A DNA stretch of 38,352 bases from a virus: IMG/VR virus record IMGVR_UViG_3300038701_001393, positions 1 through 38,352 of that record. The stretch is one strand, 5' to 3'. The stretch's first letter is position 1, and each line of letters opens with the position of its first letter. This document shows positions 1 through 23,274 of the stretch, piece by piece. The position numbers and the translations under genes are program-made. The notes under the pieces were generated by a model, which worked only from the letters and a program-made list of their open reading frames with translations, ran no database searches and was not told the origin of the DNA.

Positions 1-127
1 CCCACCATCAGCAATAAAAGACGCCGCTTGGCCACTAGTGCTTGATGTGGCATAAACGCCATAAGCGCCAAGAGGTGCAGTTTCGGCTGCATTCAGTCCA
101 TTAAAGTTAGGATTTCTAATATAATTG
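1..127. repeat. 127-bp terminal direct repeat identical to 38226..38352 (circular-assembly overlap; unique genome 38,225 bp)
   Basis: Base-by-base comparison: 1..127 (cccaccatcagcaataaaag...ctaatataattg) equals 38226..38352 exactly. An exact end overlap of this kind is what a de Bruijn assembler leaves on a circular or terminally redundant molecule. Confidence 0.95.
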
Positions 128-4076: not shown

Positions 4077-4981
4077 TAGAGTACTCCATAGTCAACCATC
4101 AGATAGCCATCTTTCTCCAAGACAGCACCAGGGTTAATTGCCTGTACATCTTGAGCCATAACGCCGTAATACCATTGATCAGAGCTCTTATACTGATACT
4201 TATAGGCATCGTACTCTTTGTACTTACCAACCCTGGTGATATTTCTCTTAAGCCTTCGGTCCGAGAACAAAAGACCCAGACCTTGACCAAGCAAATTAAC
4301 AACATTTTGTGTCCCAGCAGCACCCGCTTGAGCTGCACCAACCTGACCAGCCGCCTGAGCATTAGCAATCTGAGTCAATAAATCACCTGTGCGACCAGCA
4401 GTATTAATTCCACTAACACCAGTCTGTGCAGCACTCGCCTGCCCAACACCCAAGGCAGATAAAAGATCACTTCTTTGACGTGAGAGCAAATCAGATCCAG
4501 TTCTTAGGAATGCATCCTGAAGCAAAACATCTGTCTCACCTGCAGGGCGACCTTGTGCCGCCTGAGATGCTTGGATTCGTCGCTGGGATTCATCTAGAAG
4601 TGCTTGTAATGCGGGATCTTGAGCAATTGAAGCGCCTGCCGTAGGCCCAAATAAACCCTGAGCTTGAGGTAATAAATCAGTACCCAAAGCTCCAGCAAAT
4701 GGGGCTAATGACTCCTCTAGTCGGCGCTGAGCTTCTTCCGCTACTGTGATAGCGCGCTGGCCCGCATCCTCTTGAAGTCCAGCCGCTCGACGAGCCGCCT
4801 CTTCCGCAGACCTGCCCGTGATGTCGTTTATAGCTCCGGTCAAAGGGTCGATAGCCAGCCCAACAGCACCGCCTAGACCGCCACCTAGAAGGTTTCCTAC
4901 GCCAAACCCAGCAATATCCAGACCCGTAGACTCCCGGAGGGGATCTCGAATCTGCTCTTGGAAAAAGCTACCTATACCCAT
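4076..4981 (-). CDS. Virion protein with a glycine-zipper N-terminus, an Ala/Gln-rich helical region and a C-terminal peptidase-S74 intramolecular-chaperone domain
   Basis: ATG 4981 is preceded by a GGTGG SD (the track start at 4993 is GTG). N-terminus GFGVGNLLGGGLGGAVGLAI. C-terminus SDRRLKRNITRVG...YYGVMAQDVQAINPGAVLEKDGYLMVDYGVL fits the S-D-x-x-L-K-x-N-I autocleavage site and core of the endosialidase-chaperone domain (Peptidase_S74). Confidence 0.65.
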   Translation of the reverse strand: MGIGSFFQEQIRDPLRESTGLDIAGFGVGNLLGGGLGGAVGLAIDPLTGAINDITGRSAEEAARRAAGLQEDAGQRAITVAEEAQRRLEESLAPFAGALGTDLLPQAQGLFGPTAGASIAQDPALQALLDESQRRIQASQAAQGRPAGETDVLLQDAFLRTGSDLLSRQRSDLLSALGVGQASAAQTGVSGINTAGRTGDLLTQIANAQAAGQVGAAQAGAAGTQNVVNLLGQGLGLLFSDRRLKRNITRVGKYKEYDAYKYQYKSSDQWYYGVMAQDVQAINPGAVLEKDGYLMVDYGVL

Positions 4982-5023
4982 AATAACCACCAAATAAAAA
5001 TATACTTAAAGAGTATAACATGA

Positions 5024-5356
5024 TTAGTTTGTAAGCTCTTTTATGCCTAAATTCAAATTTAACGATGATGCGGATGAAGCTAAGGCATACACAGTATCCC
5101 CAGTACTTAAAACCCTGCCAACTATAGGGATAGACAGCGTTTCGTTTGGCCAAATATCTTTCTTGTAATACTGGTTAGCCACGGAAACAGAAGCGCCATT
5201 CTGAACTATATTTAACGTTAGTGTTACGGTAGACGTCCCTTCATTATGAACAACCGCATAAATAATATGAGAGCTAGCAACCGAGGGAACGGTATAGAGT
5301 AGTGTTGAAGTGGCTGGAACCTGCTCCAACGGATAATCTTTATAAGATGTCGCCAT
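5024..5356 (-). CDS. Hypothetical small beta-rich protein in the tail module (110 aa)
   Basis: Clean ORF with a 2-nt gap to the upstream gene, on the same strand as the structural operon. No motif recognised. Confidence 0.5.
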   Translation of the reverse strand: MATSYKDYPLEQVPATSTLLYTVPSVASSHIIYAVVHNEGTSTVTLTLNIVQNGASVSVANQYYKKDIWPNETLSIPIVGRVLSTGDTVYALASSASSLNLNLGIKELTN

Positions 5357-5358
5357 AA

Positions 5359-6516
5359 CTACACCGAATCATAAATATTAAAAGAGAGGCGGGCTGAAAC
5401 CTCTGTATTGTTAGTGTTGGTAGAGGCTGTGCACCAAATTACATCGCGCCCACTAAAAGGAAAGTTGACGGGATCAACAATTTCCAAATGGTTCTCTGTC
5501 GAAGTATCCATCACGTATCGAAAAACCTCATATTGCGTCTCAACCAGTCGGTTATATACAAACATCTTAAATGTGACCCTAGGAGAGCCACCGCCCGATA
5601 TCTTAAGAGCATTCACAAATAGAAACTTAGCCACACCTACCGCGTTAATAGGAATATGCGCCCATAACTGCTGTGTAACACTTGTTTCCGCAGGAACAAA
5701 CGCCTGAACACTGCCGCCTGTAGTCGCGGTGACGGTAATGTCATTAGTATTGGTATTAGCGCTACCGCTTGAGACAACCACCACTCTATTAATTCCCAGC
5801 CCGCTAAAGCTAGTAGTATCCGAACCGCTAGATCCGAGAGCATGAGTCCCCTGCTGTAACTCAAAGTTCTCATCGAGATAATCAACAAGCAAAACCGTAG
5901 CGCCAGTTGTAGAGCTACCATCTGTTGTATTGTTATACGCAATATCAAACGTTCCAGCTGTTGTCATTATTGTAGGGGTGTTCGTTGCACTATCTGCGAT
6001 GATTAAAGCGTCACCGTCTGATGTATCTACATCGTCGCGAAACGCAAACTTATTTAGCTGAGATACACCACTCCTTAAACCCCTCGTGACCTCATCCTGG
6101 AAATCGGCAGGTCTGGTCAGGATGGAATCAGCATCCAAACCCTGAGATTGGTTTAAAGGGCTGTTAGGCACCTTAGCGAAGGCTCCATAATACGTATAAA
6201 GCTGGAAGGTAGACTGCGCAGAGGCAGAGTTAACAAACCTAACCCTGAAATACCGTGGACCCTTTACTGCTGTATGAAACTCATGGATACCCGCTGCAAC
6301 AGAAAAACCCTGAACCGGGAATGTGCGCCAATCCGTACCATTAACCGAGAAATCAAAATATAACGTGCCCTCAGTATCTGAATAGCATGAGCACATAACA
6401 TCAGGGAATGGATTTTGTTCTGCTGTACCCGTGAAAGTAGCGCTAGATGCCAGTGTTGTTGTAGTGGTGTTTGTGGCGCTCTGTATGCCGTAACCAGGGT
6501 TAGAAATAAAACTCAT
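5359..6516 (-). CDS. Hypothetical virion/tail-associated protein (385 aa), T/S/N-rich
   Basis: ATG 6516 makes an ATGA overlap with the stop of the 6513..7004 gene (the track start at 6528 is GTG). It contains runs such as NTTTTTLASS and SGSANTNTND. No nameable domain. Confidence 0.6.
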   Translation of the reverse strand: MSFISNPGYGIQSATNTTTTTLASSATFTGTAEQNPFPDVMCSCYSDTEGTLYFDFSVNGTDWRTFPVQGFSVAAGIHEFHTAVKGPRYFRVRFVNSASAQSTFQLYTYYGAFAKVPNSPLNQSQGLDADSILTRPADFQDEVTRGLRSGVSQLNKFAFRDDVDTSDGDALIIADSATNTPTIMTTAGTFDIAYNNTTDGSSTTGATVLLVDYLDENFELQQGTHALGSSGSDTTSFSGLGINRVVVVSSGSANTNTNDITVTATTGGSVQAFVPAETSVTQQLWAHIPINAVGVAKFLFVNALKISGGGSPRVTFKMFVYNRLVETQYEVFRYVMDTSTENHLEIVDPVNFPFSGRDVIWCTASTNTNNTEVSARLSFNIYDSV

Positions 6517-7004
6517 TGAATTACCCACTCACCAGCATCATCAATATATTTAAAGTGTGCAACATCATAAGCTCTATGTATTTTATATTCTGTTTGATCG
6601 TTTACATCCCCAGAAACAGTAACGATTATGTCGCTAGATGGCTGAACCCAAACCTCTTCACCACCCTTGGGGTTTGAGTTTAATGTAACCGTAGCAGTGG
6701 CTGTAACCCTTACAAACTCATTGCCAGATGTGGTGTGCGCTGAACTTACAGAGTAATAGCGTATTTGTTGATCATCAAAAATAGTTTGAAATAGCGCCTG
6801 AATGTTTTGCAGTCTATATGTTTGATTCTCTACACTTTCAATCTTATCCGATAGAGAGGTGGTGTCGTCGGTCGTCCCGCCAGTTCTCAAGTAAATCTGA
6901 TCAAGAATTAAGAATAGCTGCTTCCATAGATTGTTTTGTTCGGCCGTATATTGCTCATATGGATGGATTGAATATAGCGTGGCTGGTGGTATTACATCTG
7001 TCAT
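6513..7004 (-). CDS. Hypothetical tail protein in the needle/plug slot (163 aa)
   Basis: ATG 7004 makes an ATGA overlap with the hub gene stop (7001..7003). A heptad-like segment SLSDKIESVENQTYRLQNIQALFQTIF is followed by a beta-rich C-terminus. It occupies the position of P22 gp26 after the gp10-like gene. Function is positional only. Confidence 0.45.
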   Translation of the reverse strand: MTDVIPPATLYSIHPYEQYTAEQNNLWKQLFLILDQIYLRTGGTTDDTTSLSDKIESVENQTYRLQNIQALFQTIFDDQQIRYYSVSSAHTTSGNEFVRVTATATVTLNSNPKGGEEVWVQPSSDIIVTVSGDVNDQTEYKIHRAYDVAHFKYIDDAGEWVIQ

Positions 7005-8425
7005 CGCCCAGCCTCCCGAACCCATATAGCCGAATCATAAACATCAAAGGCCGTGTTCTCTGTATACCGAATTTTAACGGTTAGATCTTTAAACTTGGCA
7101 TTAGAGTAATAATCAACATTTTTTATGTAGTCACCAACTTCACCTAACGAAAGGAATTTGGAAGACCCAAAGTTCCTACCTCCATCCGTTGAAATGCTCA
7201 CTTCCATTTGTGGATTATCATCGCTCACACCAACACCCGTATTAACCGCAAACTGCAAACACTTCATTTGCAGATTCGCCCTAGGCGCTCCAAGCGTTTC
7301 TCCAGCCATGGGCCGGAATACTCTCTCTCTAACACGAGTCACAGAATTATCCTGATATGTATCAACATCCAACTCGTAAATATTGCCGCCAAATCTATCG
7401 CCAACGAGTATTTTATTAAATAACCAAGCAAACGTTTTGCCTAGATATAGTTGACCATCTATATGGTAATCAAGCTCAAACCAAAGACTGGTTTCCTCGG
7501 AAAAACACCAAGTCTTCCCTTCTGTTGGAAACACAAACATGACAACATCCTGCCCATGCACCTTAGTGCATTGGACGTATGCCGTTTCTTTTGTGTATGT
7601 CTCAAATAAAGTGGTAATACCAGGGTTGTTCTCAGCTATATCTCTAGCCTGAAACGAAACTATGCGGTATGGAATTTTGTCATTTCCAAGAAAATATAAG
7701 GCTTGAGATGTTCCGCATATGGCGTTTTTGTTTGCCAATCCGGTAGATTCAATAATCACCCCATTAATGCGAGCAAAAGGAGGGTTTCCAGAACCTATAT
7801 CCTGCCAGGGCTCAAAAGTAGACTCCCCAGCTACAAACAAGAACTGGTCAAACACCTTTATTCCGCGCGTTAAATCAGAGTTTGACTTGGCCTCAAAAGG
7901 AATTTCTGTACCAAAAGTTGTAGCGCCCACATCGCTTAGGTGAACTCTTCCCGCAGTATCTAGAACCACAAAACGTTCGTTTAAATAATCAACCTGATCA
8001 GGTGTAAAGCTTAAGGAAAGCGTTGTTAATGTCGTCCCATCATGGGTGTACGCCGTTCCACCACCAACAATAAATAAAACATTGCCGTTATCGGCCATAG
8101 AAACAAGACCAGAACCCGCTATGACTCCCTCATTTGTCTGCGCTCCGGTGGAGTCAATCTTATATAAAGTACTTCCTGAAACCTTCCACGCATTCGCAAG
8201 AAATGGCTTTCTATGAATGCCGCGATCAAACTCCCCCGCCGCGCCAGACGACCAAAGTTTGAGGCCAGGAAACGAATATAAAGCCGCAGTATTCGTCAGA
8301 GAATTCTGAGCGGGAACGGGCACCATATTCTTTGTATATTGAGACGAAAGATCTTTAGCTGAGGATATAAAGGAATCGCCAACCACTGTATATGGCTGCC
8401 TTTGAAAGCTAGTACTAAAAGGCAT
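7001..8425 (-). CDS. Tail hub / packaged-DNA stabilisation protein, P22 gp10-like
   Basis: 474 aa (P22 gp10 is about 472 aa). By eye, the N-terminal third parallels my recollection of gp10: LYSFPGL.., STLYKID..EGVIAGSGLVSMADNG..GGGTAYTHDGTT here, against ..LRSFPGI.., GGKLYKG..VGDVAGSGRVSMAHGR..LVEYRYDGT in gp10. It sits after the adaptor-like gene. Confidence 0.6.
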   Translation of the reverse strand: MPFSTSFQRQPYTVVGDSFISSAKDLSSQYTKNMVPVPAQNSLTNTAALYSFPGLKLWSSGAAGEFDRGIHRKPFLANAWKVSGSTLYKIDSTGAQTNEGVIAGSGLVSMADNGNVLFIVGGGTAYTHDGTTLTTLSLSFTPDQVDYLNERFVVLDTAGRVHLSDVGATTFGTEIPFEAKSNSDLTRGIKVFDQFLFVAGESTFEPWQDIGSGNPPFARINGVIIESTGLANKNAICGTSQALYFLGNDKIPYRIVSFQARDIAENNPGITTLFETYTKETAYVQCTKVHGQDVVMFVFPTEGKTWCFSEETSLWFELDYHIDGQLYLGKTFAWLFNKILVGDRFGGNIYELDVDTYQDNSVTRVRERVFRPMAGETLGAPRANLQMKCLQFAVNTGVGVSDDNPQMEVSISTDGGRNFGSSKFLSLGEVGDYIKNVDYYSNAKFKDLTVKIRYTENTAFDVYDSAIWVREAGR

Positions 8426-9048
8426 TAGGGCGTACTCCCTTCAGTCCTCATTCTTGGAGCAGGGCCGTAACGACCCTTGTTAAACCGCTTGTTACATCCC
8501 TTAATGGCCTGCATAAACTGATTGTAGTAATACGTAGCTTTCTCTTCCTCTGCATTATAGAGGTTTACAGCCCACATAGCTCCCATTAGGTACACGCTTG
8601 GACAGTCTGCAAGAATGTCGTTCGTGGTATTCGTATCATCCAGGGCGGTAAGCTTCTGGAAGTAATTAATCTCTATCGTATAGGTAGAATCCGGCACTCG
8701 ATCCCATACAAACTGTGAGGTGACTGTAAAAGATCTTGGCATACCGTTACCCGCGACCTCTTGTAGAGATTCGGGTGTAGCGTATTTAATATCTTGATTG
8801 TTTCCTGATAAAACCAGGCTTAAGCTGCGCAATTCAAGAAAGTTGGAGGGAAGAGCTAAAAATCTCGTGCCGTCCGTAGTGTCCGTAGTTCTGGTTTCCA
8901 TAGATCTATGGCGTATAGGCTGCTGTGCATTCCCATACATTTCAGCCTCAGCTAGATCAATCGCGTCATCAACAATATCGCTGATTCCGTTAGACCCATC
9001 TAGCCTTACAATGGCCGCCTTTAAGTTCGAATAATTATCAAGTGCCAT
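8425..9048 (-). CDS. Head-to-tail adaptor / head completion protein, putative
   Basis: 207 aa. The N-terminus YSNLKAAIVRLDGSNGISDIVDDAIDLAEAEMY resembles the conserved start of phage adaptor proteins. It lies directly upstream of the hub gene. Weak call, mostly positional. Confidence 0.45.
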   Translation of the reverse strand: MALDNYSNLKAAIVRLDGSNGISDIVDDAIDLAEAEMYGNAQQPIRHRSMETRTTDTTDGTRFLALPSNFLELRSLSLVLSGNNQDIKYATPESLQEVAGNGMPRSFTVTSQFVWDRVPDSTYTIEINYFQKLTALDDTNTTNDILADCPSVYLMGAMWAVNLYNAEEEKATYYYNQFMQAIKGCNKRFNKGRYGPAPRMRTEGSTP

Positions 9049-9559
9049 CTAGGGATCTCGCTATTACATAGAACCCATGAGGAGTATGGGTTAATTGGTG
9101 TACTTTAAATCTAGACCATAACTTCGGTAGCCACCACGTATAATCCTCTTGTGTTAGATGCGCATTTCGTCCATCTGTAAGAGTTTTAATCGCTGGTCCT
9201 GTATGTATTGTAAAGAATCCATACTTCTTAGTCACTCTTTGCAGATCATTGAGCACATTGTCAAGCATATCCGGCTCAATATGTTCTAAAACATCAATAC
9301 ATGTCACAAACTCACGCGGCTCTGGATCTTCCGACCACTCGGGCATAGCTGGATCATATAGTTCAATTAAAACACGTCGATCAGGGTCAATAGATTTTGC
9401 CAATCGTCCTTTTCCTGCCCCATAATCGAGCATTTCATTAATTTTAAGAGTGTTGATTAAGTTTGTAACCATTGGCGCAAACGACACCGAAGCCACTCCG
9501 TATTCTGGGTTTTCGTGTAGCTTCTCCTGCTCTTTGCGGTATTCATCACTTATTAGCAC
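9038..9559 (-). CDS. Class I SAM-dependent methyltransferase
   Basis: 173 aa. Motif I LDYGAGKGRLA, acidic post-I LYDP, and CIDVLEHIEPD typical of Methyltransf_11/23-type enzymes. It overlaps both neighbours by 14 and 11 nt. Confidence 0.7.
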   Translation of the reverse strand: MLISDEYRKEQEKLHENPEYGVASVSFAPMVTNLINTLKINEMLDYGAGKGRLAKSIDPDRRVLIELYDPAMPEWSEDPEPREFVTCIDVLEHIEPDMLDNVLNDLQRVTKKYGFFTIHTGPAIKTLTDGRNAHLTQEDYTWWLPKLWSRFKVHQLTHTPHGFYVIARSLDGT

Positions 9560-10277
9560 GTTTTTTTGCCTTCTTTGAATGTTTATAGAACTTGGGCATA
9601 CGATCGCTATAACTTGCAGAGGAATTAACCTCCATTAGTGTTTCATACCACTCATCCGCGAACTCTTGGTTTTCGTAACCTTCAAAACACGGAGAGCCTA
9701 ACGTGAAATGCACAATCTTGGCGTTAGGATTTGGATCGTACTCACCCACCAAATGGTTATATTCAGGAGGTAGTTCGCCAATACGTTCTGGCGTGGTCCA
9801 TTCGAACCGATGTAAATACTTGCCTGTAGCTTTACTGACACTGTCACAGGTTAGTTTTCTTACAGGATAATTTGAGCAGTTAAACAACATAACAGAAGAC
9901 CAATTCTTCATCGGATAGGCGTGCTGCTCATTTCCCAAGAACTTAACCTTATCTTTCGGGATGTAATCATGCTTAACAACGTGTACATCGTTGCCGCCTT
10001 GGTATAGATCGAATATCTCAGCGATATCACATCTAACCAGTATGTCGCAATCCATAAACAGGGCTAAACCTTTATATCCAGCCAGATATGGGGTAAGAAA
10101 TCGAGAGAAAGAAAACTCCGTACTTCCATCCTCTTTATCGCGCTTAAAGTTTCTCATATTCCCCATGTTAATAGGGGTGATGGACACCGGATGTGAAGAG
10201 TGTTTCATTATTGAGTGAGCGCACACATGATATGCGGCCGTTTCGTTTGAGTCATAGCCTATAAAAACGTTTAACAT
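9546..10277 (-). CDS. GT-A glycosyltransferase, family 8-like
   Basis: 243 aa. NVFIGYDSNETAAYHVCAHSIMKHS.., FSFSRFLTPYL, DxD in ALFMDCDILVRCDIAEIF, and a late IVHFTLGSPCF. The order and spacing are typical of GT8 (RfaJ/LgtC-like) enzymes. Confidence 0.7.
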   Translation of the reverse strand: MLNVFIGYDSNETAAYHVCAHSIMKHSSHPVSITPINMGNMRNFKRDKEDGSTEFSFSRFLTPYLAGYKGLALFMDCDILVRCDIAEIFDLYQGGNDVHVVKHDYIPKDKVKFLGNEQHAYPMKNWSSVMLFNCSNYPVRKLTCDSVSKATGKYLHRFEWTTPERIGELPPEYNHLVGEYDPNPNAKIVHFTLGSPCFEGYENQEFADEWYETLMEVNSSASYSDRMPKFYKHSKKAKKRANK

Positions 10278-10459
10278 TTAATCATATCCCAGTCATCTTT
10301 GGCTTGAGCGCCATTAATATTGTACTTAGCGCCATACCCTCTAACCCATCGAGAGTAGTTCCATTGTTTTTTCTTTGCATGAATCATCGATTTGAACATC
10401 TCCACCTTGTTCACTGACAATTCGCTTTGCTCGCTTACAGGTTTCTCGCCATCGCTCAT
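10271..10459 (-). CDS. Possible small overlapping ORF (62 aa, or 42 aa from the internal Met)
   Basis: It overlaps the last 119 nt of the TPR-GT gene in another frame. Its TAA overlaps the ATG of the GT8 gene (ATGTTAA). No motif, so it could be a chance ORF. Confidence 0.25.
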   Translation of the reverse strand: MSDGEKPVSEQSELSVNKVEMFKSMIHAKKKQWNYSRWVRGYGAKYNINGAQAKDDWDMIKC

Positions 10460-11726
10460 TTTGCTTCTGCCTTATTAATTTAACGGATTTATACCAAGGA
10501 AAATCACCTTTCATATGGTATCGATAACCAGGATGAGAGGGTGTTAGTACGTAACAAGGAACACCCAAAGCCCCGGCCACATAAACAACTGTAGTGCACG
10601 ATGTAATGACGTAGTCCAATTGAGATATTAGAGCGGCTAAGTCATCAATAACACCACCCTTGGCCGTAACGTTATAGCGTTTTAAATCATACTTTTCGGC
10701 TATTTCATCGCTCACAGCCTTATATTCTAGGCTTATAAAAGTATCTTCGTCGTTGAATATGGGCTCTAAGTCTTCGATCTCTAAGGATCTTCTTTTTTCG
10801 CCCGTGCTTTTCAATCCTCCCCGCCATGCCACGCCCACCTTTTTACCTTTGAATGAATCAAACAGCGCGCGCCACATAATTACTTGCTCTGGATCAGGCT
10901 TAAGATAAGGATCACCGGGGTACGCATCATCACTTCTTCGATAGAAATACGGGAGTTGACCGATAGCACACTGATAATCAAAATGCTGATCAGCAGCCCT
11001 CGATTGCGTTTTAAACCGATCACCATAAACCTCACAATCAAATGATCTATCAAACAAGCTTTCTAACCGAGAGTCACAATCAAAAATAACTTTATTAGTC
11101 TTCAAAACATCAGCAAGACACGAGGCAAACATAATCTCATCGCCTACACCTTGCTCGCCGTAGATTAAGACCGTGCCAGGTTCACCATTCCAGTCGGGTT
11201 TACCATAATCCCTAGCCTCCCGATGTTTTACACCAAGTGTTGCGTAGTAATCTTCCCAGCCACCCCAATCACGCAGCATAAGCCTTGCTAGACCGCGGTT
11301 GTGAACAGCAGCAGTTAGCATGGGAGATAAAGATAAGGCCTTCTCTGACAGCTCTATGCATCGCTCAGGCTGCCCTGTTTGTAGACACATAAGACCATGA
11401 TTAGCTAAAGCTCTGTGATTCTTGCGATCCAACTTAAAGGCTTTCTTGAAATAGGTCTTCGCCTTCTCGGGGCTTGACTCCTCCAAACACATGCCCATGT
11501 TTGACCATATTTCAGACATGTTTGGCTTTAATTGAGCACACCGCTGATAGATTTGATAGGCAAGACCATAACGCTCGGCTTGCATCATGATATAACCAAC
11601 CATGAATAGCGCCATTTGCCCGTTGTCGGTGTCGTATCCTTCGTTAAGGATGTCGTTACAGATTCGAAGAGCCTCGTCTGGCTCATCTTGAATGATGGAT
11701 TTTGCGTATAGCAATTCTTTGTGCAT
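10341..11726 (-). CDS. TPR-repeat protein fused to a GT-B (GT9/heptosyltransferase-like) glycosyltransferase domain
   Basis: 461 aa with a GAGGAG SD. The N-terminal ~150 aa are TPR-like (AYQIYQRCAQLKPNMSEIWSNMGMCLEE; AKTYFKKAFKLDRKNHRALANHGLMCLQTGQ). The C-terminal part has LIYGEQGVGDEIMFASC, KKVGVAWRGG and DDLAALISQLDYVITSCTTVVYVAGALGVPCYVL, as in GT9-type enzymes. Confidence 0.65.
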   Translation of the reverse strand: MHKELLYAKSIIQDEPDEALRICNDILNEGYDTDNGQMALFMVGYIMMQAERYGLAYQIYQRCAQLKPNMSEIWSNMGMCLEESSPEKAKTYFKKAFKLDRKNHRALANHGLMCLQTGQPERCIELSEKALSLSPMLTAAVHNRGLARLMLRDWGGWEDYYATLGVKHREARDYGKPDWNGEPGTVLIYGEQGVGDEIMFASCLADVLKTNKVIFDCDSRLESLFDRSFDCEVYGDRFKTQSRAADQHFDYQCAIGQLPYFYRRSDDAYPGDPYLKPDPEQVIMWRALFDSFKGKKVGVAWRGGLKSTGEKRRSLEIEDLEPIFNDEDTFISLEYKAVSDEIAEKYDLKRYNVTAKGGVIDDLAALISQLDYVITSCTTVVYVAGALGVPCYVLTPSHPGYRYHMKGDFPWYKSVKLIRQKQNERWRETCKRAKRIVSEQGGDVQIDDSCKEKTMELLSMG

Positions 11727-11749: not shown

Positions 11750-12073
11750 TTAGATTTTATCTACGGTTAATAACGCCTTGTAGTCGCGCTGAATAATCTT
11801 TTCGATCTTTGGAAGGTCGTCCTTATTATTCCAATCGAGGTTATATTTTACCAGAATCTCATGAAGAACAGTATTTGGCACTGTGGCAAAGTGATACCAA
11901 TCAGATTTAATACCCTGGCGTTTATATGACGAATCATTAGCTAGCTGTTTTGTGTGTTTTAAAATAGCCTGAACATCTTGCTGTTGCGAAATTAAAAACT
12001 TACCGCTCCCATCAGCTTCAAAGTAAGTAGAAGTTCTAGTGGTGGGGTCATATTCCAATAATCGTTTACTCAT
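11750..12073 (-). CDS. Hypothetical protein (107 aa)
   Basis: ORF with a GGAGAAAAG SD immediately after the MCP terminator. No motif recognised. Confidence 0.6.
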   Translation of the reverse strand: MSKRLLEYDPTTRTSTYFEADGSGKFLISQQQDVQAILKHTKQLANDSSYKRQGIKSDWYHFATVPNTVLHEILVKYNLDWNNKDDLPKIEKIIQRDYKALLTVDKI

Positions 12074-12085
12074 CTTTTCTCCAAT

Positions 12086-12106
12086 AAAAAAGGGGCCGAA
12101 GCCCCC
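12086..12106 (-). terminator. Rho-independent terminator downstream of the major capsid gene
   Basis: Minus-strand RNA reads GGGGC-UUCG-GCCCC followed by UUUUUUAUU, a GC stem with a UUCG tetraloop and a U-tract, 20 nt after the MCP stop. Confidence 0.8.
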
Positions 12107-12126
12107 TTATTATAACTGACTAGGAA

Positions 12127-13095
12127 TTAAACAGTACAATCCGTAATTTTACCGGATGCAGCCTCATTCTTAACTTGAAGTGTGTACTCTGCTGTAATCA
12201 TGGTTCGATCACTATCGCCAGTCTTAGCTAGATCAGTGAACTCCATATCACGAAGCATCGCCACACCTAAGTACTCCATATCCAACACAAAAACTGTAGC
12301 ATCACGCTGGAAGCGGCTAGGAACAACCTTCAAAATGCCAAAGTTCGACTTATAGAAGTCTACAGCACCCATCAGTGTTACATCCTGGTTAGCGTTAGCA
12401 TCAGTTTGTAGCGTTGAAATACCGCTGAACCCTGAGATCTGTGTGCGGTTATGAGGGCCACACATAATAACCTTAGGATCACCACCTTGGTTCCAGCACT
12501 CTTGAATTACTTCATCAAGATCAGCTTTAGTAAATGAGCCAGCAGTAGAAGCATCAGTAGGAGCTGCAACGGTGCCAGATGAGAAACCCGGAGTAGTTAC
12601 GCCTGAAGCCGAAACACCAGCAGATGTTTTATTTGTTGCCAGCCACGACTCGAGAGAAGCCAAAGAGCGCGCAGTACCAGCACCACCAGCAGAAGACGCC
12701 TGGTTGCGAGTCAATGCAAACTCCATATCACGCTTGATTTCACGACCACGCTTAGCAACTTGGTATGCAAATTCATCGGCGCGACCCGCTGTATCGGCAG
12801 CACGCTGAGTGCCAGATACAGAGACAGTCTTGCGTGAGATTTGGCAGTAGTTACCTACGCGAGTTGTAGCAACGAAAGTGTTAGCCGTAGCATCATCACC
12901 TTCAATTTGACGGTTAGCGGCAGCAGACTCTAGAGCGTCTGTTTGCCATTCATGATACACCGCACTAGCAGAGCCCTTAGAAGCTTCTGACAAGAAAGGA
13001 GTATCCATTGGAGAGATATCGTAAATAATATCTACAAGATCTTCTCGGTTACCAATTGCCGCATGTGCGGTTACTGTATTAGTAGGGACAGCCAT
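12127..13095 (-). CDS. Major capsid protein (HK97 fold, DUF5309/SU10-type)
   Basis: 322 aa. The N-terminus AIGNREDLVDIIYDISPMDTPFLSEASKGSASAVYHEWQTDAL is the hallmark start of this MCP family. It follows a scaffold-like gene and is followed by a strong terminator. Confidence 0.85.
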   Translation of the reverse strand: MAVPTNTVTAHAAIGNREDLVDIIYDISPMDTPFLSEASKGSASAVYHEWQTDALESAAANRQIEGDDATANTFVATTRVGNYCQISRKTVSVSGTQRAADTAGRADEFAYQVAKRGREIKRDMEFALTRNQASSAGGAGTARSLASLESWLATNKTSAGVSASGVTTPGFSSGTVAAPTDASTAGSFTKADLDEVIQECWNQGGDPKVIMCGPHNRTQISGFSGISTLQTDANANQDVTLMGAVDFYKSNFGILKVVPSRFQRDATVFVLDMEYLGVAMLRDMEFTDLAKTGDSDRTMITAEYTLQVKNEAASGKITDCTV

Positions 13096-13099
13096 GATT

Positions 13100-14077
13100 T
13101 CACCTCATTAATTTCTTAATTGCTGCCTGGGCGTCAGACATCTTTCCGGTCTTTTTCAATCTGCTGCGCTGTTCTTGCACTTTAGATCTCGAAATCTCTT
13201 CTTTTGTCTTAACATTCCCAGCTTTAACGTTTTTGGGTTTAACTTGTACTTTCTTGGTTTCCGGCTTGGCAGACTTTAATTTGTCATACATAGCCGCCTT
13301 GCGAGCAATTACCAAAAGACGATGATCAATAAAGGGTCGTAAAGCATCTCCCTCAATTCCCATTCCCACCAACATATCATTAATAAGCTTGGTTTCTTGA
13401 GTTTGGGTCCCCTCATCCAACCACTCAGGAACAGCTTGAAATAAAAGCTCTTTCTCTTTCTCTAGTCGCTGCATAGATTGCTGCTGTTGAAATTCTTGAG
13501 CCTCTTTTTTCATTTCGGCCAAGCGATTAGCTTTAGCCTCTAGCTTTTCCTTCTTTTTGTAATACTCTTGCGGGTCGTACTCTTTAAGCTCTAGATTCTC
13601 TTCGCTGTTTAAATCTTCAGCCTCGACAATCAACAACTCTTCTGCTTGCTTCACTTTCTCAGCAAATGCCGCTTTCTCTTTCGAGAACTCATCACGCTGC
13701 CTAGCCACTTCCGAAGTCTTCTTGCGATAATCCGACTCCATCATGTAGCCTTTCTTAAGCTCATCAAGCGGTACTTCTCGCTCTTCACCATTCACTTTAA
13801 CTTTGTATGTTGGCTCCGGTTCTGTGTCGCTCTCAGATGTTTCCACCTCCGGCGTCTCTTCCGATTCCTCGTACTCAGTATCTTGCTCTTGGTGTTCGGA
13901 AACCTCGTCAGTTTCCTCAGCAATCTCCTCAACTTCTGGCTCTTGCTGTGCCTCTTCAGGACTTTCTGCCGTTTCCGGCTCGCTATCGCTTGGCTGGGTG
14001 GGCGTTTCCGCCTCTGGCTGCCCCTGCTGCAATAATTGTGCGATCTGGCTTGCGCCATGGTTTACATCGACTCCCAT
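13100..14077 (-). CDS. Scaffolding protein, putative
   Basis: 325 aa. The N-terminal third is extremely acidic (EPE/EET runs) and the C-terminal part is a Lys/Glu coiled coil. It lies between the portal and the MCP. Confidence 0.55.
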   Translation of the reverse strand: MGVDVNHGASQIAQLLQQGQPEAETPTQPSDSEPETAESPEEAQQEPEVEEIAEETDEVSEHQEQDTEYEESEETPEVETSESDTEPEPTYKVKVNGEEREVPLDELKKGYMMESDYRKKTSEVARQRDEFSKEKAAFAEKVKQAEELLIVEAEDLNSEENLELKEYDPQEYYKKKEKLEAKANRLAEMKKEAQEFQQQQSMQRLEKEKELLFQAVPEWLDEGTQTQETKLINDMLVGMGIEGDALRPFIDHRLLVIARKAAMYDKLKSAKPETKKVQVKPKNVKAGNVKTKEEISRSKVQEQRSRLKKTGKMSDAQAAIKKLMR

Positions 14078-14096: not shown

Positions 14097-14381
14097 TTAT
14101 AATTCTTGCACTCGTCTCACTACTAGCGGCTTATTGAGTTGGTCTAAAGCCCTAGATCCAGACTTAATATAACCCTTAAAAACATTCTCAACTAAATCGA
14201 CCGCCTTTAGGGTGTAGTAATAACCTTCTCTATCTATCGATTGATCAAAACTACTAGAAGCAATGTTCCGATAAATATTATCTCTTATATCACTAAATGC
14301 GCTCTTGATCAATTCGTCATCAAGTAGCTGCTTTGTTCGCTCACCTTTACGGCGCTTCTGTTCTAGCTCTATTTCGTTCAC
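14097..14381 (-). CDS. Hypothetical protein (94 aa)
   Basis: The GTG start overlaps the portal stop (GTGA at 14378..14381). It lies between the portal and the scaffold. Confidence 0.5.
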   Translation of the reverse strand: MNEIELEQKRRKGERTKQLLDDELIKSAFSDIRDNIYRNIASSSFDQSIDREGYYYTLKAVDLVENVFKGYIKSGSRALDQLNKPLVVRRVQEL

Positions 14382-16414
14382 ATTAATGCTCCGGGTACGT
14401 TTTGACCTGTGTCAGCCTCGGTCTTGGTGGCTAGCTCTGTTAATTTAAATGCTAGCTCTTCATCAAACTGTTTGGCCTCCTGTGCCAACTTCATTAGCTC
14501 CATTTGCTTCTTATCAGCCATCTCTTTGGCTTTTAAAGTATCCCTTTGATTTACTTCTGCCATTCTTGCTTGAGCCTTAATTAGCTCTGCCTCAGCTAGT
14601 GGATTCTGCTGCACTTGAGCTTGCAGTTGCTGGACAGCTTTAGTTAAAAGCTCATTCTGAGCCTGCAACACCTCTTCCGGCTTCTCAGGATCATTAAAAT
14701 ACAAGGATGACTCTTTTAATCCCGTCTCGACCACCAACTTGTCTAGTGTGTTATAAACCTTGGCCTCATCTGAAAGCGTGGAACCTTGGGCAATCAATTC
14801 TAATTGACGCTGAAGTATCACATTCAAATTGACAATCTTCTCGTTGCGGTCGCCACTACCCAAACCCACATCAACCATGCAGTCTAAGTTATATCGCCAT
14901 GATGTCGGATCAATCTCTAACGGCTGTCCTGACACGCGAATCTGGATCTTATCTTCCTGATACTTAGTAATCAGATTGATTGTCTTGCGAAATAAATCCT
15001 TTACCCCCGTCTCGGCAAACACACGAGCAATCAACTCCATACGCTGCTGTGAGTAGTCTGAGATACCCTTAAACCCTGTAGCTGTATGGTTTAAAGCATC
15101 CGCATCTAATCCTTGAGAGAATCGTGTAAACCCTGTTCGGCGTTCTGAAGATGAATCAATATACTCAACTTCTTGTAATATTTGCGCCACTTGGGGCTGA
15201 GTAATGATAGGAGTGACTGCATCACCAATAGGGCCTTCACCGTCAATATGAATACCACCGCCAGGACGAGGAGTGAAAAGATCATCTTCATCGACACGAT
15301 CGTTATAAGCAATTCTTTGATAGTTTGTCGCATAAATATTATCTAATGACTGTCGAACCAATACCGACTTAGTGAATTGAATATCCGCCACCTGCTCGGC
15401 GGGACATGTACCAATAGCTCGATGCGGAATGGGGACTGGGGTAACCACCGCAAACGGATGCTCATCCCACAAATTCTTTTCCAATATTTGATCACCAGCC
15501 TCAAATATCTGCCAAAGCTCAGTTATACCATCTTCATCAGCATCGATATAAGCATACATCTCTGTAAGCTCTACCAAATCATTGCTGCGGTTAGGAACCG
15601 ATACATCTAGATTGTTGTTGTCATAATCATGGTAGCGGGCATTCTTTTCTTCAGAGTTATCAATGCGTGTTTGACCAGGTAAAGACATTACCACCTCTTT
15701 ATCAAACCCCATCTCTATTAGCTCTGAGCGCGCCTTGGGTGTCGTATGACCTATCATTGGAGGCTTAACAAAATCTCTTGCTCTGCGACTTATCAGGAAT
15801 TCTTCTGGAGGGATATTCTCATATATGACCTTGCTGTGCTTCTTCGTTCGCTTAACGGTGGCGTCATAAGTAACGCTGGCAATTACACCAATAGACGTCT
15901 CAATCTGCTCTACATCTTGCGCAACTTCCTTCACCTCGGTCTCTTCATCAGCTAATAAAGCTTCATATTCATCCTGAGATAACCCCGAGTAATTTTCCTC
16001 TGTCACCTCCTCTGCCTCGTCGTGCATCACTTTCACGGCGCCCGTGTATTGGAGCAATGCATCCTTAAACATGTTAACGAGAGTTAGTACACCCTGATTC
16101 TGACGATAGAACACATAGTTAGCCAGCTGTGTCTTTTGTTCCGCCTCATCATCAGCGCTAGAATCATCAGCGGTGAACTTCGCCACCTCCTTACCCTGAG
16201 TAAACACGCGGATAAGACTAGGGAGCATACCCTCAACAATGTCTGAAACATCACTAGAAACAAAACGAGAACGACCATCAACCTCATCACCGAAAGGCTG
16301 CTGATTGTAGTAATCCATTAATTTGGCGCGCTTAGCTCCTATCTCATCCCTGTAGGATATAGAATCATTCTTTTCCGCTTGAACTATATTCAAGATTTCG
16401 CTGTCGTTGAGCAT
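14378..16414 (-). CDS. Portal protein
   Basis: 678 aa. The N-terminus RAKLMDYYNQQPFGDEVDGRSRFVSSDVSDIVEGMLPSLIRVF is typical of P22-type/podovirus portals. It has a long C-terminal coiled coil and is downstream of the terminase. Confidence 0.85.
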   Translation of the reverse strand: MLNDSEILNIVQAEKNDSISYRDEIGAKRAKLMDYYNQQPFGDEVDGRSRFVSSDVSDIVEGMLPSLIRVFTQGKEVAKFTADDSSADDEAEQKTQLANYVFYRQNQGVLTLVNMFKDALLQYTGAVKVMHDEAEEVTEENYSGLSQDEYEALLADEETEVKEVAQDVEQIETSIGVIASVTYDATVKRTKKHSKVIYENIPPEEFLISRRARDFVKPPMIGHTTPKARSELIEMGFDKEVVMSLPGQTRIDNSEEKNARYHDYDNNNLDVSVPNRSNDLVELTEMYAYIDADEDGITELWQIFEAGDQILEKNLWDEHPFAVVTPVPIPHRAIGTCPAEQVADIQFTKSVLVRQSLDNIYATNYQRIAYNDRVDEDDLFTPRPGGGIHIDGEGPIGDAVTPIITQPQVAQILQEVEYIDSSSERRTGFTRFSQGLDADALNHTATGFKGISDYSQQRMELIARVFAETGVKDLFRKTINLITKYQEDKIQIRVSGQPLEIDPTSWRYNLDCMVDVGLGSGDRNEKIVNLNVILQRQLELIAQGSTLSDEAKVYNTLDKLVVETGLKESSLYFNDPEKPEEVLQAQNELLTKAVQQLQAQVQQNPLAEAELIKAQARMAEVNQRDTLKAKEMADKKQMELMKLAQEAKQFDEELAFKLTELATKTEADTGQNVPGALM

Positions 16415-16551: not shown

Positions 16552-17802
16552 CTATGCTATTGATAGTTTAGGATACTTTTTAACCCTTGACTTCGCTGAT
16601 TTATCTTTCCAAACCACCGCAAAATACCTAAATGCATCCGCATAATGCGACGCCCAATTGTGCAGAGGCTTGCTTTTAAACACTCCGCGCTCATCATCAA
16701 AATCCCGTCGATACCCCTTTAATGCCTTAACCCCATCTCTAGTCATAGGTTCATTAAACCAGCATCTGGGAAGGATCTGTCTAACCGCATTAATCCCATC
16801 AATCACAGGGATGTTGGGAACCTTCTTGAGCTCTATCCCCATGCTCTTGGCTGTCTCTAATCGAGACTTTCCTGTAGTTAGCTCTCGAACCGCTATATCG
16901 TGTGGCGCGTGATGATCACCAAATACAACTTTATTCTTAGCCCTAAACTCATGAAGATAATTAATAAAATAATCTATGCCTTCGTTATAGCCAGAATAAC
17001 TATGTACAAACCTAAGCTCCTGTCCCCTCTGCTGCATAAACCAAATAGTCATGTCGTCATCCACACCAAGATCCCAGAATGTATGAACTGGAAGTGATGG
17101 CTCAATAGGGAATTCTTTAATCTGATCTTGAGTGATATGTTTTTGATAATAAGCGCCATCATGATTGGCTACCGGCTGGCCTTCCCATATCCACCTGTAT
17201 AGATTCTCATCCTTTTTAAATAAATGATCCTTCTCTCTTCTCAATTCGTCTGGAAACCAAGGGTTGTCCTGCCAATTAACCTTAAGAATTACCGACTTCT
17301 CTGGAGGCTCAATAACAAAACGTTGGTAAGTATCATCCATCTCATCCCTTGGGTTAAAACTTACCCATATCTCACTCTTAGGCTTTCGTATCGTAGGTAT
17401 GAGAGTTTCCCAAGATGTAAAGGTTACAGACTCTGCCTCTTCCACCCATACAATATCGATACCTTCCATAGATTTGATCTTGGTAACGTTAGACTTAAGG
17501 CCTTCGAATATAAATCTTGACCCATTGTTGGCTAGAATCTGTGTCTTCTGTACTTCAAAGAATGAGGTGAGACCCATGCGGTCTATAGTGTCGGATAGCA
17601 ATTGGATAACAGAGTCACTTATAGATCTCTGTATCTCACGCGCACATAGAATGCGAGTGGGTTTTTGATATGCCTGTAATACAAGGAGTGTGGCGATAGT
17701 CCAAGACTTACCTGACCCCCTGCCTCCATAAGCCACTTTGTACCGTGATGGGCTTAAGAATGGCTGTAGCTTCTTGGGAATATTAAGTTGGAGAGACGAC
17801 AT
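16552..17802 (-). CDS. terL: Terminase large subunit (Terminase_3 / PBSX XtmB type)
   Basis: 416 aa. Walker [11 protein letters not shown], Walker [10 protein letters not shown], and nuclease-half acidic motif [14 protein letters not shown]. Confidence 0.92.
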
Positions 17803-19368: not shown

Positions 19369-19610
19369 AACAGCTTCTTAGCTAACTCATTGTATCCCTG
19401 GTTTCTATTATGGTTCACTGTTTCGCCATGATCAGTGGTGTACCGATAGTTACCCGAATTACCTATCTCCGTGGTGATACTTGCTGATCGAATATAATCG
19501 ATGATCCCATTTACCGTCACTGTGACCGTGATAGTCTCACCGCCGGGTTCATCTCTATTCTTGCCGCGCCTTCTAGGCTCATTTACGGGTCTTTTCTTTC
19601 TAGCTGCCAT
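19365..19610 (-). CDS. Hypothetical protein with a basic N-terminus (81 aa)
   Basis: MAARKKRPVNEPRRRGKNRDEPGG... The start overlaps the end of the 1224-aa gene by 11 nt. Confidence 0.5.
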   Translation of the reverse strand: MAARKKRPVNEPRRRGKNRDEPGGETITVTVTVNGIIDYIRSASITTEIGNSGNYRYTTDHGETVNHNRNQGYNELAKKLL

Positions 19611-22600: not shown

Positions 22601-23274
22601 AATTCAAAGGTGGGGCCTGCTTTCTTAGCCAGTTGTGATCGATAGTCCTGGGTGGAGAACTGCTCCACTAAGTCAAAGTAATCTTCTAGCTCTACCGTAG
22701 CTGCTCCGCCGGTATCTTCAAAGGTAGCAGGGCCATCAATAAATACTAGTTGGTCAATATGACATGCAAATGCGAATACGTCGGTATTGCTGGCCTGCAT
22801 CTGGAATGCAAAGCCTGTGACGTCTGTGTTATCGAATGTGCCCACCGTTGAGTCTGGCGTGCCAAACATCATACAAGGGTGATAGAACCCGTCATTCCCT
22901 GAGCTACTACCTACCGTGAACTCCCAAATACCCCAGTTAGCTGTGCCCGTGCCCGATCTGAGGCACATACGAATGGCTTTGACGTTGTTAAATCCTGATG
23001 AGTTAACCCGGTAGTGACATACAAATGCTGTATCCGTGGCACTCATATCAACAGCCGAGCCAGAAAAAGCTGCCCAAGCGCTGTACCAATCATCCGTTAC
23101 AGTCGCTGTTCCACCGTTCTCAAAGTAGTTCGATGCTGAACTACCGTTAATCCCTTCTGAACCACTCGTAAAGCCGTCGATAATAGCCTGGTCTGCACCG
23201 GCCACTACTGCCCTTGTTAACGCCGAAGCGCTAAGATCTAAAGGTCTTGTAAGGTTACTAACCGATGCAGCCAT
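19600..23274 (-). CDS. Giant S/T-rich virion-surface / host-recognition protein (1224 aa), putative
   Basis: Longest ORF in the genome. It has long T/S/G/N-rich beta-like stretches. One carbohydrate-binding-like module is present: WAATTAYSLGDKVLRSTG..GLYFQCTTAGTTGGSEPTWNTTLAATTSDGTVTWTC. The C-terminus is fibre-like (..SVSGSTVTFRDQADTKDRITATVDSNGQRTSVTVDGS). The CDS is certain; the function is inferred. Confidence 0.75.
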   Translation of the reverse strand: MAASVSNLTRPLDLSASALTRAVVAGADQAIIDGFTSGSEGINGSSASNYFENGGTATVTDDWYSAWAAFSGSAVDMSATDTAFVCHYRVNSSGFNNVKAIRMCLRSGTGTANWGIWEFTVGSSSGNDGFYHPCMMFGTPDSTVGTFDNTDVTGFAFQMQASNTDVFAFACHIDQLVFIDGPATFEDTGGAATVELEDYFDLVEQFSTQDYRSQLAKKAGPTFEFGFPVKIASDDYNSTAVAEGIAFKEADDFGYPAMPSGFFQLLLECPASGTQVFDNFTAATNSTAYDLTIDGTAASSSLTVTNGLFAGVNDTVVDGANVTLTSCTIASPATADIADGDLDLTITGSTAAIDWTADLVSGSSLTTDSDIDITFAETDLSDITLTLTASNTVTVSPTTGSGTYDLSGLTTTGTVELDNSTANNTTITLPSGTSNTVASPTAGGGSITVDSPSVTFTINSSESSSLIQIFTQNTQTVLDSTTGSSLAFVHSGQTVDYVVQKAGFLPQRVTGVTLSGTSSVTVNLVEDPIYNASNGLSSPADYSYDASTRILTIVANQEGRDLYSALIDDFISETAYRNCPFPITAIGPDRFDFNAIGYYNTATTVGATIDSGDIQFWKGAGMEWEHDTTGNPTKKFYSIKSSNTLQASSVVGYTQVLAGTPSEATLVSNQVNQVIQYFEDTNGDGTPDYNYTSHLLFKGFLTGYYQARWDVINDGGVSTLESYEYNIALTQDAIAGTTGDQSVTITTLTDHASSPISVGGKNFDYELVDPGTTSAENLLAQHNYNVYNAVNTSISGSLYTSYTAFDLPDLVVEAGANYETERGYFEGDGAVTDLSGVYLSRSSADHPDIARFQSNDGTYYTPATVAQVSAPNLTAGRVQLVNETGRTASAWAATTAYSLGDKVLRSTGAGTERGIGLYFQCTTAGTTGGSEPTWNTTLAATTSDGTVTWTCRDIEIENTTNTSGYSYSWTDGEEADAGDTLRLRWIDSDEDEIEATGIATAAGTTSFLNTPVDDDVYDGYGIDGSTVTEYTADFPNVEVDVNDPDNIFYIDRFYAWWKYNLTTADGIRNFFGGVTAIDTSNITINNSVVDIFFDNTKATSARQGDNIVIQRSDGAYPQVTTTSGGGGLGFYYTGIGYSTSSGSGLDTTERNKLLGLYDYDPTTNTLEGSTTYQEAQRIMLAESAGQVSVSGSTVTFRDQADTKDRITATVDSNGQRTSVTVDGS

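Follow-up and report, generated by a model that had tools for sequence, protein, structure and literature searches.

A candidate protein O-glycosylation cassette with a TPR and GT-B enzyme beside the capsid gene of a short-tailed phage

Three enzyme genes between the capsid and adaptor genes

The window analysed here is the whole of IMG/VR virus record IMGVR_UViG_3300038701_001393 (38,352 nucleotides, nt), and the subject of this work is a cassette of three enzyme genes on its minus strand. The genes lie between the gene of the major capsid protein (MCP), which is followed by a gene for a conserved protein of 107 amino acids (aa; p107), and the head-tail adaptor gene, where a preliminary description of the sequence had placed them. 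The first gene (10341-11726) is an open reading frame (ORF) for a protein of 461 aa, in which tetratricopeptide repeats (TPR), recognised by Pfam, are followed by a domain that was predicted with AlphaFold to be a glycosyltransferase of the GT-B type; this protein is called TPR-GT below. The second gene (9546-10277) encodes a GT8-like enzyme of the GT-A type (243 aa; Pfam GT8, E = 3.5e-5; phrog_28018, E = 3e-50), and the third (9038-9559) encodes a class I methyltransferase that uses S-adenosylmethionine (SAM) (173 aa; Methyltransf_23, E = 8.1e-7; phrog_24759 'methyltransferase', E = 3.5e-18). The enzyme identities given in the preliminary description (TPR plus GT-B with a GT9-like fold, GT8-like GT-A and class I SAM methyltransferase) held, and every motif quoted there for the three proteins and for a loop of the MCP was found.

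The MCP (322 aa; 12127-13095, minus strand), which is the candidate acceptor considered below, has an HK97 fold of the SU10/LUZ24 type (Pfam SU10_MCP, E = 1.4e-98; phrog_1328) and matched PDB entries 9ny2 (E = 7e-55) and 7z45 of SU10 (E = 4e-23). The p107 gene occupies 11750-12073 on the same strand (phrog_3982, E = 1.4e-10), and the adaptor gene (8425-9048, minus strand; Pfam SU10_adaptor, E = 2.8e-24; phrog_2941) forms the downstream border of the cassette. Overlaps of 11-14 nt had been reported for these genes, which applies to two of the four junctions: the GT8-like and methyltransferase genes overlap by 14 nt and the methyltransferase and adaptor genes by 11 nt, whereas gaps of 23 nt and 63 nt separate p107 from the TPR-GT gene and the TPR-GT gene from the GT8-like gene, respectively.

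A strong G+C hairpin that resembles an intrinsic terminator and is followed by a T-run was found just behind the MCP stop codon, in a spacer of 53 nt (12089-12108, minus strand); its sequence, AAGGGGGCTTCGGCCCCTTT TTTATTGG (GGGGGC…GCCCC), forms 8 pairs, 5 of them G-C. A terminator-like hairpin after the MCP gene is the usual arrangement by which more MCP than downstream product is obtained. The hairpin probably attenuates transcription into the downstream genes, and p107 and the enzymes would therefore be made in smaller amounts than the MCP. Promoter-like sites across the cassette region were at the chance level (12 found vs 11.5 expected), and a promoter of its own, or a moron structure, was rejected for the cassette on this basis. 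The cassette has no transcription unit of its own, as it overlaps the adaptor gene and sits behind the post-MCP hairpin.

The motifs FSFSRFLTPYL and FMDCDILV were both located in the 243-aa protein, which scored 23.9 bits against Pfam Glyco_transf_8 (cut-off 24.3). A GT8 match at E < 0.01 was obtained for 7 of 28 relatives (best 3.2e-7), and the homolog from Methylococcus passed the cut-off with 24.5 bits. The residues D76-x-D78 and H190 are invariant in 28 GT8-like sequences, and the DxD region aligned to the GT8 enzyme WbbM (E = 0.1). The protein has at least 7975 homologous clusters, and some of its homologs are named 'lipopolysaccharide biosynthesis glycosyltransferase' by the Joint Genome Institute (JGI). 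On these sequence matches, we propose that it is a GT8-like, retaining-type GT-A enzyme that extends a glycan. The 173-aa protein contains the glycine-rich SAM motif LDYGAGKG together with CIDVLEHIEPD, and its Methyltransf_23 score (29.3 bits) lies above the cut-off of 27; its proposed role is O-methylation of the glycan.

Predicted structure and family of the TPR-GT protein

The TPR domain of the TPR-GT protein covers aa 1-155 (11262-11726, minus strand) and consists of nine helices, or about 4.5 repeats, according to Pfam (TPR_8/2/1/14/19) and AlphaFold. The TPR_8 match has an E-value of 6.8e-10, the Pfam TPR matches together span aa 32-135, and the AlphaFold helices lie at residues 3-150 with a predicted local distance difference test (pLDDT) score above 90. 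The predicted GT-B domain, with a GT9-like fold by Foldseek, extends over aa ~176-440 (10407-11201, minus strand; pLDDT 89-92), and the motifs GEQGVGDEIMF, VGVAWRGG and DYVITSCTTVVYVAGALGVPCYVL occur in the protein. The NCBIfam models matched by the 461-aa protein were TPR models only, with nothing for the C-terminal ~300 residues. The input for structure prediction was an alignment of 38 homologs (48-74% identity), across which 49 columns are invariant, including G193-x-G195-D196-E197; W301-x-G303-G304 and R313 are further conserved GT-B residues, and C377-T378-T379 is near-invariant. In the full-length model (pLDDT 92; predicted template modelling score, pTM, 0.87), the nine TPR helices precede two Rossmann-like lobes.

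The preliminary description had assigned this protein to the architecture of OGT, SPINDLY and FlmG-type enzymes, and the full model agrees with that: the top Foldseek matches in the PDB were SPINDLY, human and Drosophila OGT and bacterial OGT homologs (XcOGT), with E-values of 1.7e-10 to 3e-7. Because the template modelling (TM) scores are low (0.32-0.43), these matches are taken to reflect the shared TPR plus GT-B architecture. The GT41 enzymes (OGT, SPINDLY, XcOGT) are thus the best whole-protein fold match, with a TPR superhelix and a GT-B unit that acts on Ser/Thr of proteins, but the phage protein is much smaller, has no intervening domain and carries a GT9-like catalytic domain. Membership in GT41 was rejected: no Pfam GT41 match was found for the catalytic domain at E up to 10, and no GT41 entry appeared in the top 50 of the domain-only Foldseek search, in which GT9 enzymes ranked first.

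When the catalytic domain was modelled alone (pLDDT 89.3), its best match in the PDB was WaaF (1psw; E = 1.1e-5, TM 0.52), and other matches were the GT9 entry 3tov, WaaC (2gt1/2h1h/6dfe) and TibC (4rb4/4rap), with E-values of 1e-5 to 1e-3, TM ~0.5 and a probability of 1.00 for 1psw, 3tov, 2gt1, 6dfe and 4rb4. Among the predicted viral structures of BFVD, the domain matched uncultured-phage proteins with TM 0.6-0.77, including a Synechococcus phage 'tetratricopeptide repeat protein' and proteins named 'Glycosyl transferase, family 9' in UniProt. A weak hidden Markov model (HMM) alignment to WaaF placed both conserved blocks in the correct register: the invariant G-V-G-D-E of TPR-GT aligned with the N-terminal W-V-G-D of WaaF, and the block …LD.VVT.CTTVVYVAGALG.P… aligned with …IVTNDSGLMHVAAALNRP… of WaaF. 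At the donor motif, the NDSG of WaaF aligned to the profile 'acTT', so that the D-S-G of GT9 enzymes is represented by C-T-T (C377-T378-T379) in the phage protein, and ADP-heptose is therefore unlikely as the donor. The catalytic domain is probably a GT9-like GT-B enzyme that uses a donor other than ADP-heptose.

Compared with the GT9 enzymes WaaC/WaaF and TibC/AAH, the phage enzyme shares the catalytic fold, the N-terminal G-D motif and a C-terminal helix motif (…VAGALG.P…) in the WaaF register, but it has C-T-T for D-S-G, a Pfam score below the cut-off and a TPR fusion that is absent from WaaC/F and TibC. TibC, a protein Ser-heptosyltransferase that acts on an autotransporter, is an example of a GT9 fold by which proteins can be modified in the cytoplasm. 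FlmG binds flagellin through its TPR domain, and its donor specificity resides in its GT-B domain (PMC7591256; bioRxiv 10.1101/2022.03.25.485807). The phage protein resembles FlmG of Caulobacter crescentus and Brevundimonas in its order of TPR and GT-B, in a cytoplasmic setting and in the Ser/Thr of a self-assembling structural protein as acceptor, which is proposed for the phage; this likeness is one of architecture and of the published description. The phage protein differs in its length (461 vs 596 aa) and its ~4.5 TPRs, the phage genome and cassette are without genes for pseudaminic or legionaminic (nonulosonic) acid, and the proposed acceptor is a capsid protein.

Relatives in phages and bacteria, and the phage genome

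Homologs of the catalytic domain form 1028 clusters at 90% identity, and the clusters listed consist almost entirely of TPR fusions (430-490 aa), encoded on contigs no longer than ~41 kb; at least 178 IMG/VR contigs encode a TPR-GT relative. Eighty IMG/VR loci were fetched and their genes were scored by HMMs, and 71 of them span the full interval from MCP to adaptor. The gene order was always scaffold, MCP, p107, TPR-GT, other cassette genes and adaptor. Synteny in related phages, a check put forward in the preliminary description, was kept throughout, as TPR-GT was found at the same site in 71/71 spanning loci. A GT8-like gene accompanied it in 67/71 and one or more methyltransferases in 69/71; these methyltransferases are of five types that are not orthologous to each other. 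The p107 gene was detected between MCP and TPR-GT in 56 of the 80 viral loci, and the cassette-less phage Venkman has an ORF of the same size between MCP and adaptor; p107 belongs to the general head module and not to the cassette. In 134 cassette-less relatives with the same MCP/adaptor type (Venkman-like phages, HTVC106P-like phages and phiM5), the median gap between MCP and adaptor is 447 nt and none of the three enzymes was found.

The content of the cassette around TPR-GT varies. An NCBI metagenome contig (61% identity) reads MCP, 109-aa gene, TPR-GT, GT8-like, 449-aa methyltransferase-containing protein, adaptor and stabilisation protein, and a distant spring-water podovirus of like layout, MW202512 (36% identity), reads MCP, two small genes, TPR protein, endonuclease, FkbM methyltransferase and 'galT-like' protein, followed by a hypothetical protein in the adaptor position and then the stabilisation protein. 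The endonuclease of MW202512 lies within the cassette itself (L002 7911-8387). Optional extras include a 295-aa protein without a Pfam match (27 loci), a radical SAM/SPASM protein (L138 3663-4589), a stand-alone GT9-like enzyme (L160 3080-3835) and an RmlB-like 4,6-dehydratase of nucleoside diphosphate (NDP) sugars (L127 10919-11902), the last of which hints that a 6-deoxyhexose may be the sugar donated. Glycan-diversifying loci have this pattern, in which the initiating enzyme stays constant and the tailoring enzymes vary. One contig filed as a bacterial metagenome-assembled genome (MAG; L003, JADFOI010000014.1, 40,971 bp, 'Acidobacteria bacterium') is a phage genome of the same clade binned into that MAG, and it carries TPR-GT without a GT8-like gene or a methyltransferase, which is a minimal form of the cassette.

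When one genome per species was scanned, 538 bacterial relatives were obtained, the best 80 of which (29-54% identity over the catalytic domain) were kept; with the phage contig L003 set aside, 78 bacterial loci were examined, with homologs at 29-40% identity. The sources of these best 80 include Methylococcus, Pseudomonas, Zhongshania, Reyranella, Pirellulales, Burkholderiales and Rhodospirillales, among others, and no Caulobacter locus was among them. Within 6 kb of the TPR-GT homolog, a flagellin gene was found in 16/78 loci and a type IV pilin gene in 14/78, i.e. a filament gene in 30/78, and in 23 of these 30 the distance was 600 bp or less. Both kinds of filament gene were confirmed by Pfam (Flagellin_N/C; Pilin with N_methyl). 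The phage copy, in contrast, is linked to the MCP. These bacterial relatives point to protein acceptors.

In Pseudomonas putida QH1, a 571-aa homolog lies between fliC (with flaG, fliD, fliS and fleQ beyond) and flgL/flgK, and a homolog lies between fliC and flgL in three other Pseudomonas genomes. The site between fliC and flgL/flgK is the classical position of a flagellin glycosylation island. In Pseudomonas syringae, the fgt1/fgt2 and vioT/vioM islands have glycosyltransferase genes directly upstream of fliC, and the flagellin carries Ser-linked oligosaccharides with methylated sugars made with a dedicated methyltransferase (PMC3927599). In Methylococcus capsulatus, a pilin gene follows the homolog by 98 nt and a GT8-like homolog precedes it. 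Loci in which a type IV pilin gene comes immediately after a TPR plus GT9-like gene (L007 5290-7438, L004, L015, L022, L023, L030, L038 and L071) were found in Methylococcus capsulatus and in several MAGs of Betaproteobacteria, and a GT8-like gene is often close by. Pilins are known to be glycosylated by membrane oligosaccharyltransferases, and a pilin-linked TPR/GT-B system in the cytoplasm would be a novelty.

GT8-like genes were found in 18/78 bacterial loci and methyltransferase genes of the type in the window in 17/78. The activities also occur as fusions in single ORFs, namely GT9-like plus methyltransferase in Planctomycetaceae (L012, L029, L034 and L039, at about 4400-7600) and GT8-like plus methyltransferase in a gammaproteobacterial MAG (L058 8453-9817). 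From this co-occurrence and these fusions, it follows that the three activities make up one pathway in bacteria as well. When the GT-B domain family was searched for exhaustively by HMM, 36,516 representatives (clustered at 50% identity) were obtained at E ≤ 1e-3, of which 29,243 reached E ≤ 1e-10. Many of them are giant proteins of 1000-3100 aa with 2-6 tandem copies of the GT-B domain (L005 3037-9174, L006, L025, L078; P0241-P0389), and in Pirellulales such multi-copy proteins lie directly downstream of unusually long flagellins of 785 aa. Many two-copy proteins measure 1170-1190 aa, close to the 1173 aa of VioT, the viosamine transferase for flagellin in P. syringae (PMC3927599), a likeness in size that serves as a lead only.

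The ends of the window (1-127 and 38226-38352) are an identical 127-nt direct repeat, giving a unit of 38,225 bp. Because these terminal repeats are perfect, the window is regarded as a complete genome; they reflect either a circular assembly or direct terminal repeats. The Logan run SRR15330770 holds the same contig (38,255 bp). A blastn search against 50,697 phage records gave no DNA-level match to the window, and therefore it has no annotated close relative among them. The late module is unbroken on the minus strand from the terminase (16552-17802) through the portal (14378-16414), the scaffold (13100-14077) and the genes described above to the head closure or DNA stabilisation protein (474 aa; 7001-8425; phrog_578 'head closure Hc3', E = 2.3e-66), and the tail-region genes are next. 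PF11134 Phage_stabilise was found in the L001 ortholog of the 474-aa protein. The label of a P22-type podovirus in the preliminary description had to be abandoned, as the MCP, portal and adaptor are of the SU10/LUZ24/phiM5/HTVC106P type; the tail-hub stabilisation protein, which we take to be P22 gp10-like, would be the sole P22-like part of the phage.

Outside the structural module and a 1224-aa protein, no ORF exceeds 240 aa, and no ORF of DNA polymerase or integrase size was found anywhere in the genome; a lytic lifestyle is likely because an integrase-sized ORF is missing. No tRNA gene was found in the genome, hence there is no tRNA-based clue to the host. Genes for sugar-nucleotide synthesis, which the preliminary description had likewise called absent, were found in none of the ORFs scanned in the complete genome. 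Between 33000 and 34000, the coding strand and the GC skew both flip, with minus-strand genes to ~33.1 kb and plus-strand genes from 34.0 kb; the switch probably marks either an origin or a region of divergent promoters for early and late genes. Among the small early genes is one for an HNH endonuclease (27765-28226, minus strand; HNH_3, E = 4.9e-15).

Candidate acceptors, proposed function and alternatives

The proposed O-glycosylation site is a loop of the MCP delimited by alignments (aa 155-186; 12538-12633, minus strand; NKTSAGVSASGVTTPGFSSGTVAAPTDASTAG), in which the stretch TSAGVSASGVTTPGFSSGTVAAPTDASTAGS named in the preliminary description was found. Its expected place, from the order of the HK97-fold elements, is the A-domain. 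In the cassette-bearing clade, TTPG[F/Y] and APTD are conserved in the loop, which has a median length of 31 aa and 33% serine and threonine (S+T; median 11 residues) in 39 MCPs, whereas the loops of the cassette-less lineages (122 MCPs: 67 HTVC106P-like, 54 Venkman-like and phiM5) measure 23-31 aa with 17-26% S+T; this contrast is descriptive and carries no statistical test, because only about four independent lineages are represented. The rest of the MCP contains 18-19% S+T in the three multi-sequence groups and 13% in the single phiM5 sequence.

Taken together, these data make it somewhat better than an even chance that the three genes are a FlmG-like cytoplasmic protein O-glycosylation cassette acting on a virion protein, most probably the MCP. 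The MCP is the likeliest acceptor because bacteria have the enzyme gene next to that of the filament subunit, a rule to which the order MCP, p107 and enzyme corresponds in the phage. Expression of the cassette would accompany that of the late structural genes. The 461-aa enzyme would bind the acceptor protein with its N-terminal TPR superhelix, and its GT9-like GT-B domain would move the first sugar from a host nucleotide-sugar to Ser/Thr, for which the S/T-rich MCP loop (aa 155-186, TTPG[F/Y]) is the best candidate site. The GT8-like GT-A enzyme would add a second sugar, and the SAM methyltransferase would cap the glycan by O-methylation. All of these steps are inferred by analogy with FlmG, Pseudomonas flagellin and the mycobacteriophages. 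The suggestion of virion glycosylation made in the preliminary description is now much better supported, by the conserved MCP-adjacent site, the bacterial neighbourhoods, the fusions and the S/T-richer loop, with the choice of acceptor still a matter of inference.

Several points weigh against this interpretation. What the analysis shows are the predicted folds, the domain architecture, the conserved catalytic-type residues and insertion site, and the bacterial neighbourhoods and fusions; which protein and which residues accept the glycan, in what order the enzymes act and which sugar they transfer are proposals. The Pfam model Glyco_transf_9 gave 12.1 bits for the C-terminal domain (E = 0.12; cut-off 22), and phmmer and profile searches of the PDB were non-significant for this domain (profile: WaaF, E = 2.3). 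The GT9-like call of the preliminary description is thus upheld by the Foldseek matches of the catalytic domain and not by sequence, and the assignment is one of structure prediction rather than of sequence significance. The S/T contrast in the MCP loop comes from about four independent lineages, and a G/S/T-rich loop is present in cassette-less MCPs, too. Both GT9 and GT8 are known above all for synthesis of the lipopolysaccharide (LPS) core. Finally, the bacterial homologs suggest flagellin or pilin as acceptors, so the phage copy could still act on a host filament.

It is rather unlikely that the cassette modifies another phage protein instead, i.e. the very S/T-rich 1224-aa protein, one of the two S/T-rich tail-region proteins (389 aa and 110 aa), the scaffold or p107. 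The S/T-rich proteins of 1224, 389 and 110 aa remain candidate acceptors, and they top the genome in S+T content (23-24%), with 24% measured for the 1224-aa protein and 22.9% for the 389-aa protein; the richness of both had been pointed out in the preliminary description, which gave the length of the second as 385 aa. Mycobacteriophages, moreover, modify both capsid and tail-tube subunits. Adjacency nevertheless favours the MCP or p107, and this possibility is a sub-variant of virion glycosylation and no true alternative to it. The 1224-aa protein (19600-23274, minus strand) has no Pfam match and a weak match to a head-decoration PHROG (aa 866-952), and its gene sits upstream of the terminase region, not among the tail genes.

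A role on the host cell surface appears unlikely in both forms that were considered. In the first, the cassette would glycosylate host flagellin or type IV pilin during infection and mask a receptor, and such masking would exclude superinfecting phages or keep progeny from being trapped on cell debris. The bacterial homologs (29-40% identity) directly adjoin flagellin or pilin genes, and pilus glycosylation is known to block phages (Harvey et al. 2018, cited in bioRxiv 10.1101/2022.03.25.485807). However, all related phages carry the cassette beside the MCP gene, translationally packed into the operon of late head genes; it is without a promoter or terminator of its own, and late filament modification would bring little benefit to a phage that is likely lytic, lacking an integrase-sized ORF. 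The phage TPR domain (~155 aa) is also much shorter than in the bacterial homologs, which are proteins of 512-571 aa.

In the second form, which we regard as quite improbable, the enzymes would remodel an envelope glycoconjugate of the host (LPS core or capsule), like the serotype-converting glycosyltransferases of temperate phages. The LPS heptosyltransferases WaaF and WaaC are indeed the closest solved folds, and GT8 includes LPS core glycosyltransferases, in keeping with the JGI name of some GT8-like homologs. Nevertheless, a protein acceptor is indicated by the fusion to TPRs and by the likeness to the SPINDLY/OGT architecture, and the replacement of D-S-G by C-T-T is not that of a typical ADP-heptose enzyme. 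Flagellin or pilin genes accompany 30/78 bacterial loci, which were screened for filament genes and not for LPS-core genes, and the cassette lies in the late structural operon of an apparently lytic phage. Modification of phage DNA (e.g. of hydroxymethylated bases) against restriction is highly improbable: phage glycosyltransferases are classically DNA-modifying (PMC12619734), but no match of base-hydroxymethylase type was found among the larger non-structural ORFs scanned (many small ORFs being outside that scan), no DNA glucosyltransferase was among the top fold matches, the cassette is in the head operon and not in a replication module, and the TPR plus GT9-like architecture and the flagellin/pilin neighbourhoods do not fit.

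The preferred interpretation, a cassette for glycosylation of the capsid, has its closest parallel in the mycobacteriophages, whose capsid and tail-tube subunits are glycosylated, as described by Freeman et al. 2023 (Cell Host Microbe; summary in PMC12619734). As in those phages, the glycosyltransferase genes lie inside the structural operon beside the capsid gene, but the mycobacteriophage enzymes are of other families, their glycans are at the C-termini of the capsid and tail-tube subunits, and those phages are siphoviruses on Actinobacteria in which glycosylation was shown by experiment, whereas here it is deduced from genes. The mycobacteriophage glycosyltransferases are reportedly encoded among the structural genes and use host nucleotide-sugars, and we know of none with a TPR plus GT-B fusion. 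To our knowledge, glycosylation of virions by phage-encoded enzymes has been shown experimentally in mycobacteriophages only, where it shields the particles from antibodies. Full-text literature searches found no TPR plus GT-B cassette in a phage structural module and no capsid glycosylation in podoviruses of this kind, although both the parts, in the form of FlmG/OGT-type enzymes, and the idea, in the form of virion glycosylation in mycobacteriophages, are already known.

More broadly, and with a little less than even confidence, we suggest that a large and hitherto unrecognised metagenomic clade of short-tailed phages, probably with Gram-negative hosts, glycosylates its own capsid with a short methylated glycan by means of a captured FlmG-like TPR/GT-B system. 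If true, capsid glycosylation systems would be known for the first time from phages other than actinobacteriophages, and a new, cytoplasmic glycosylation system linked to pilin would be indicated for Methylococcus and Betaproteobacteria. A function is also proposed here for a very large GT-B domain family that Pfam misses, and with four genes that can be expressed in E. coli the system could show how TPR-coupled GT-B enzymes choose their protein acceptors. If the cassette glycosylates capsids, glycan-coated capsids would be common well beyond actinobacteriophages, and the interpretation of viral metaproteomes would be affected, with modified peptides going undetected. If the phages are aquatic, the glycan coats could affect stability, aggregation, adsorption to marine or freshwater gels, grazing and decay. 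The GT-B family as a whole may follow one rule, by which the enzyme is encoded beside the self-assembling protein that it decorates, be it flagellin, type IV pilin or capsid.

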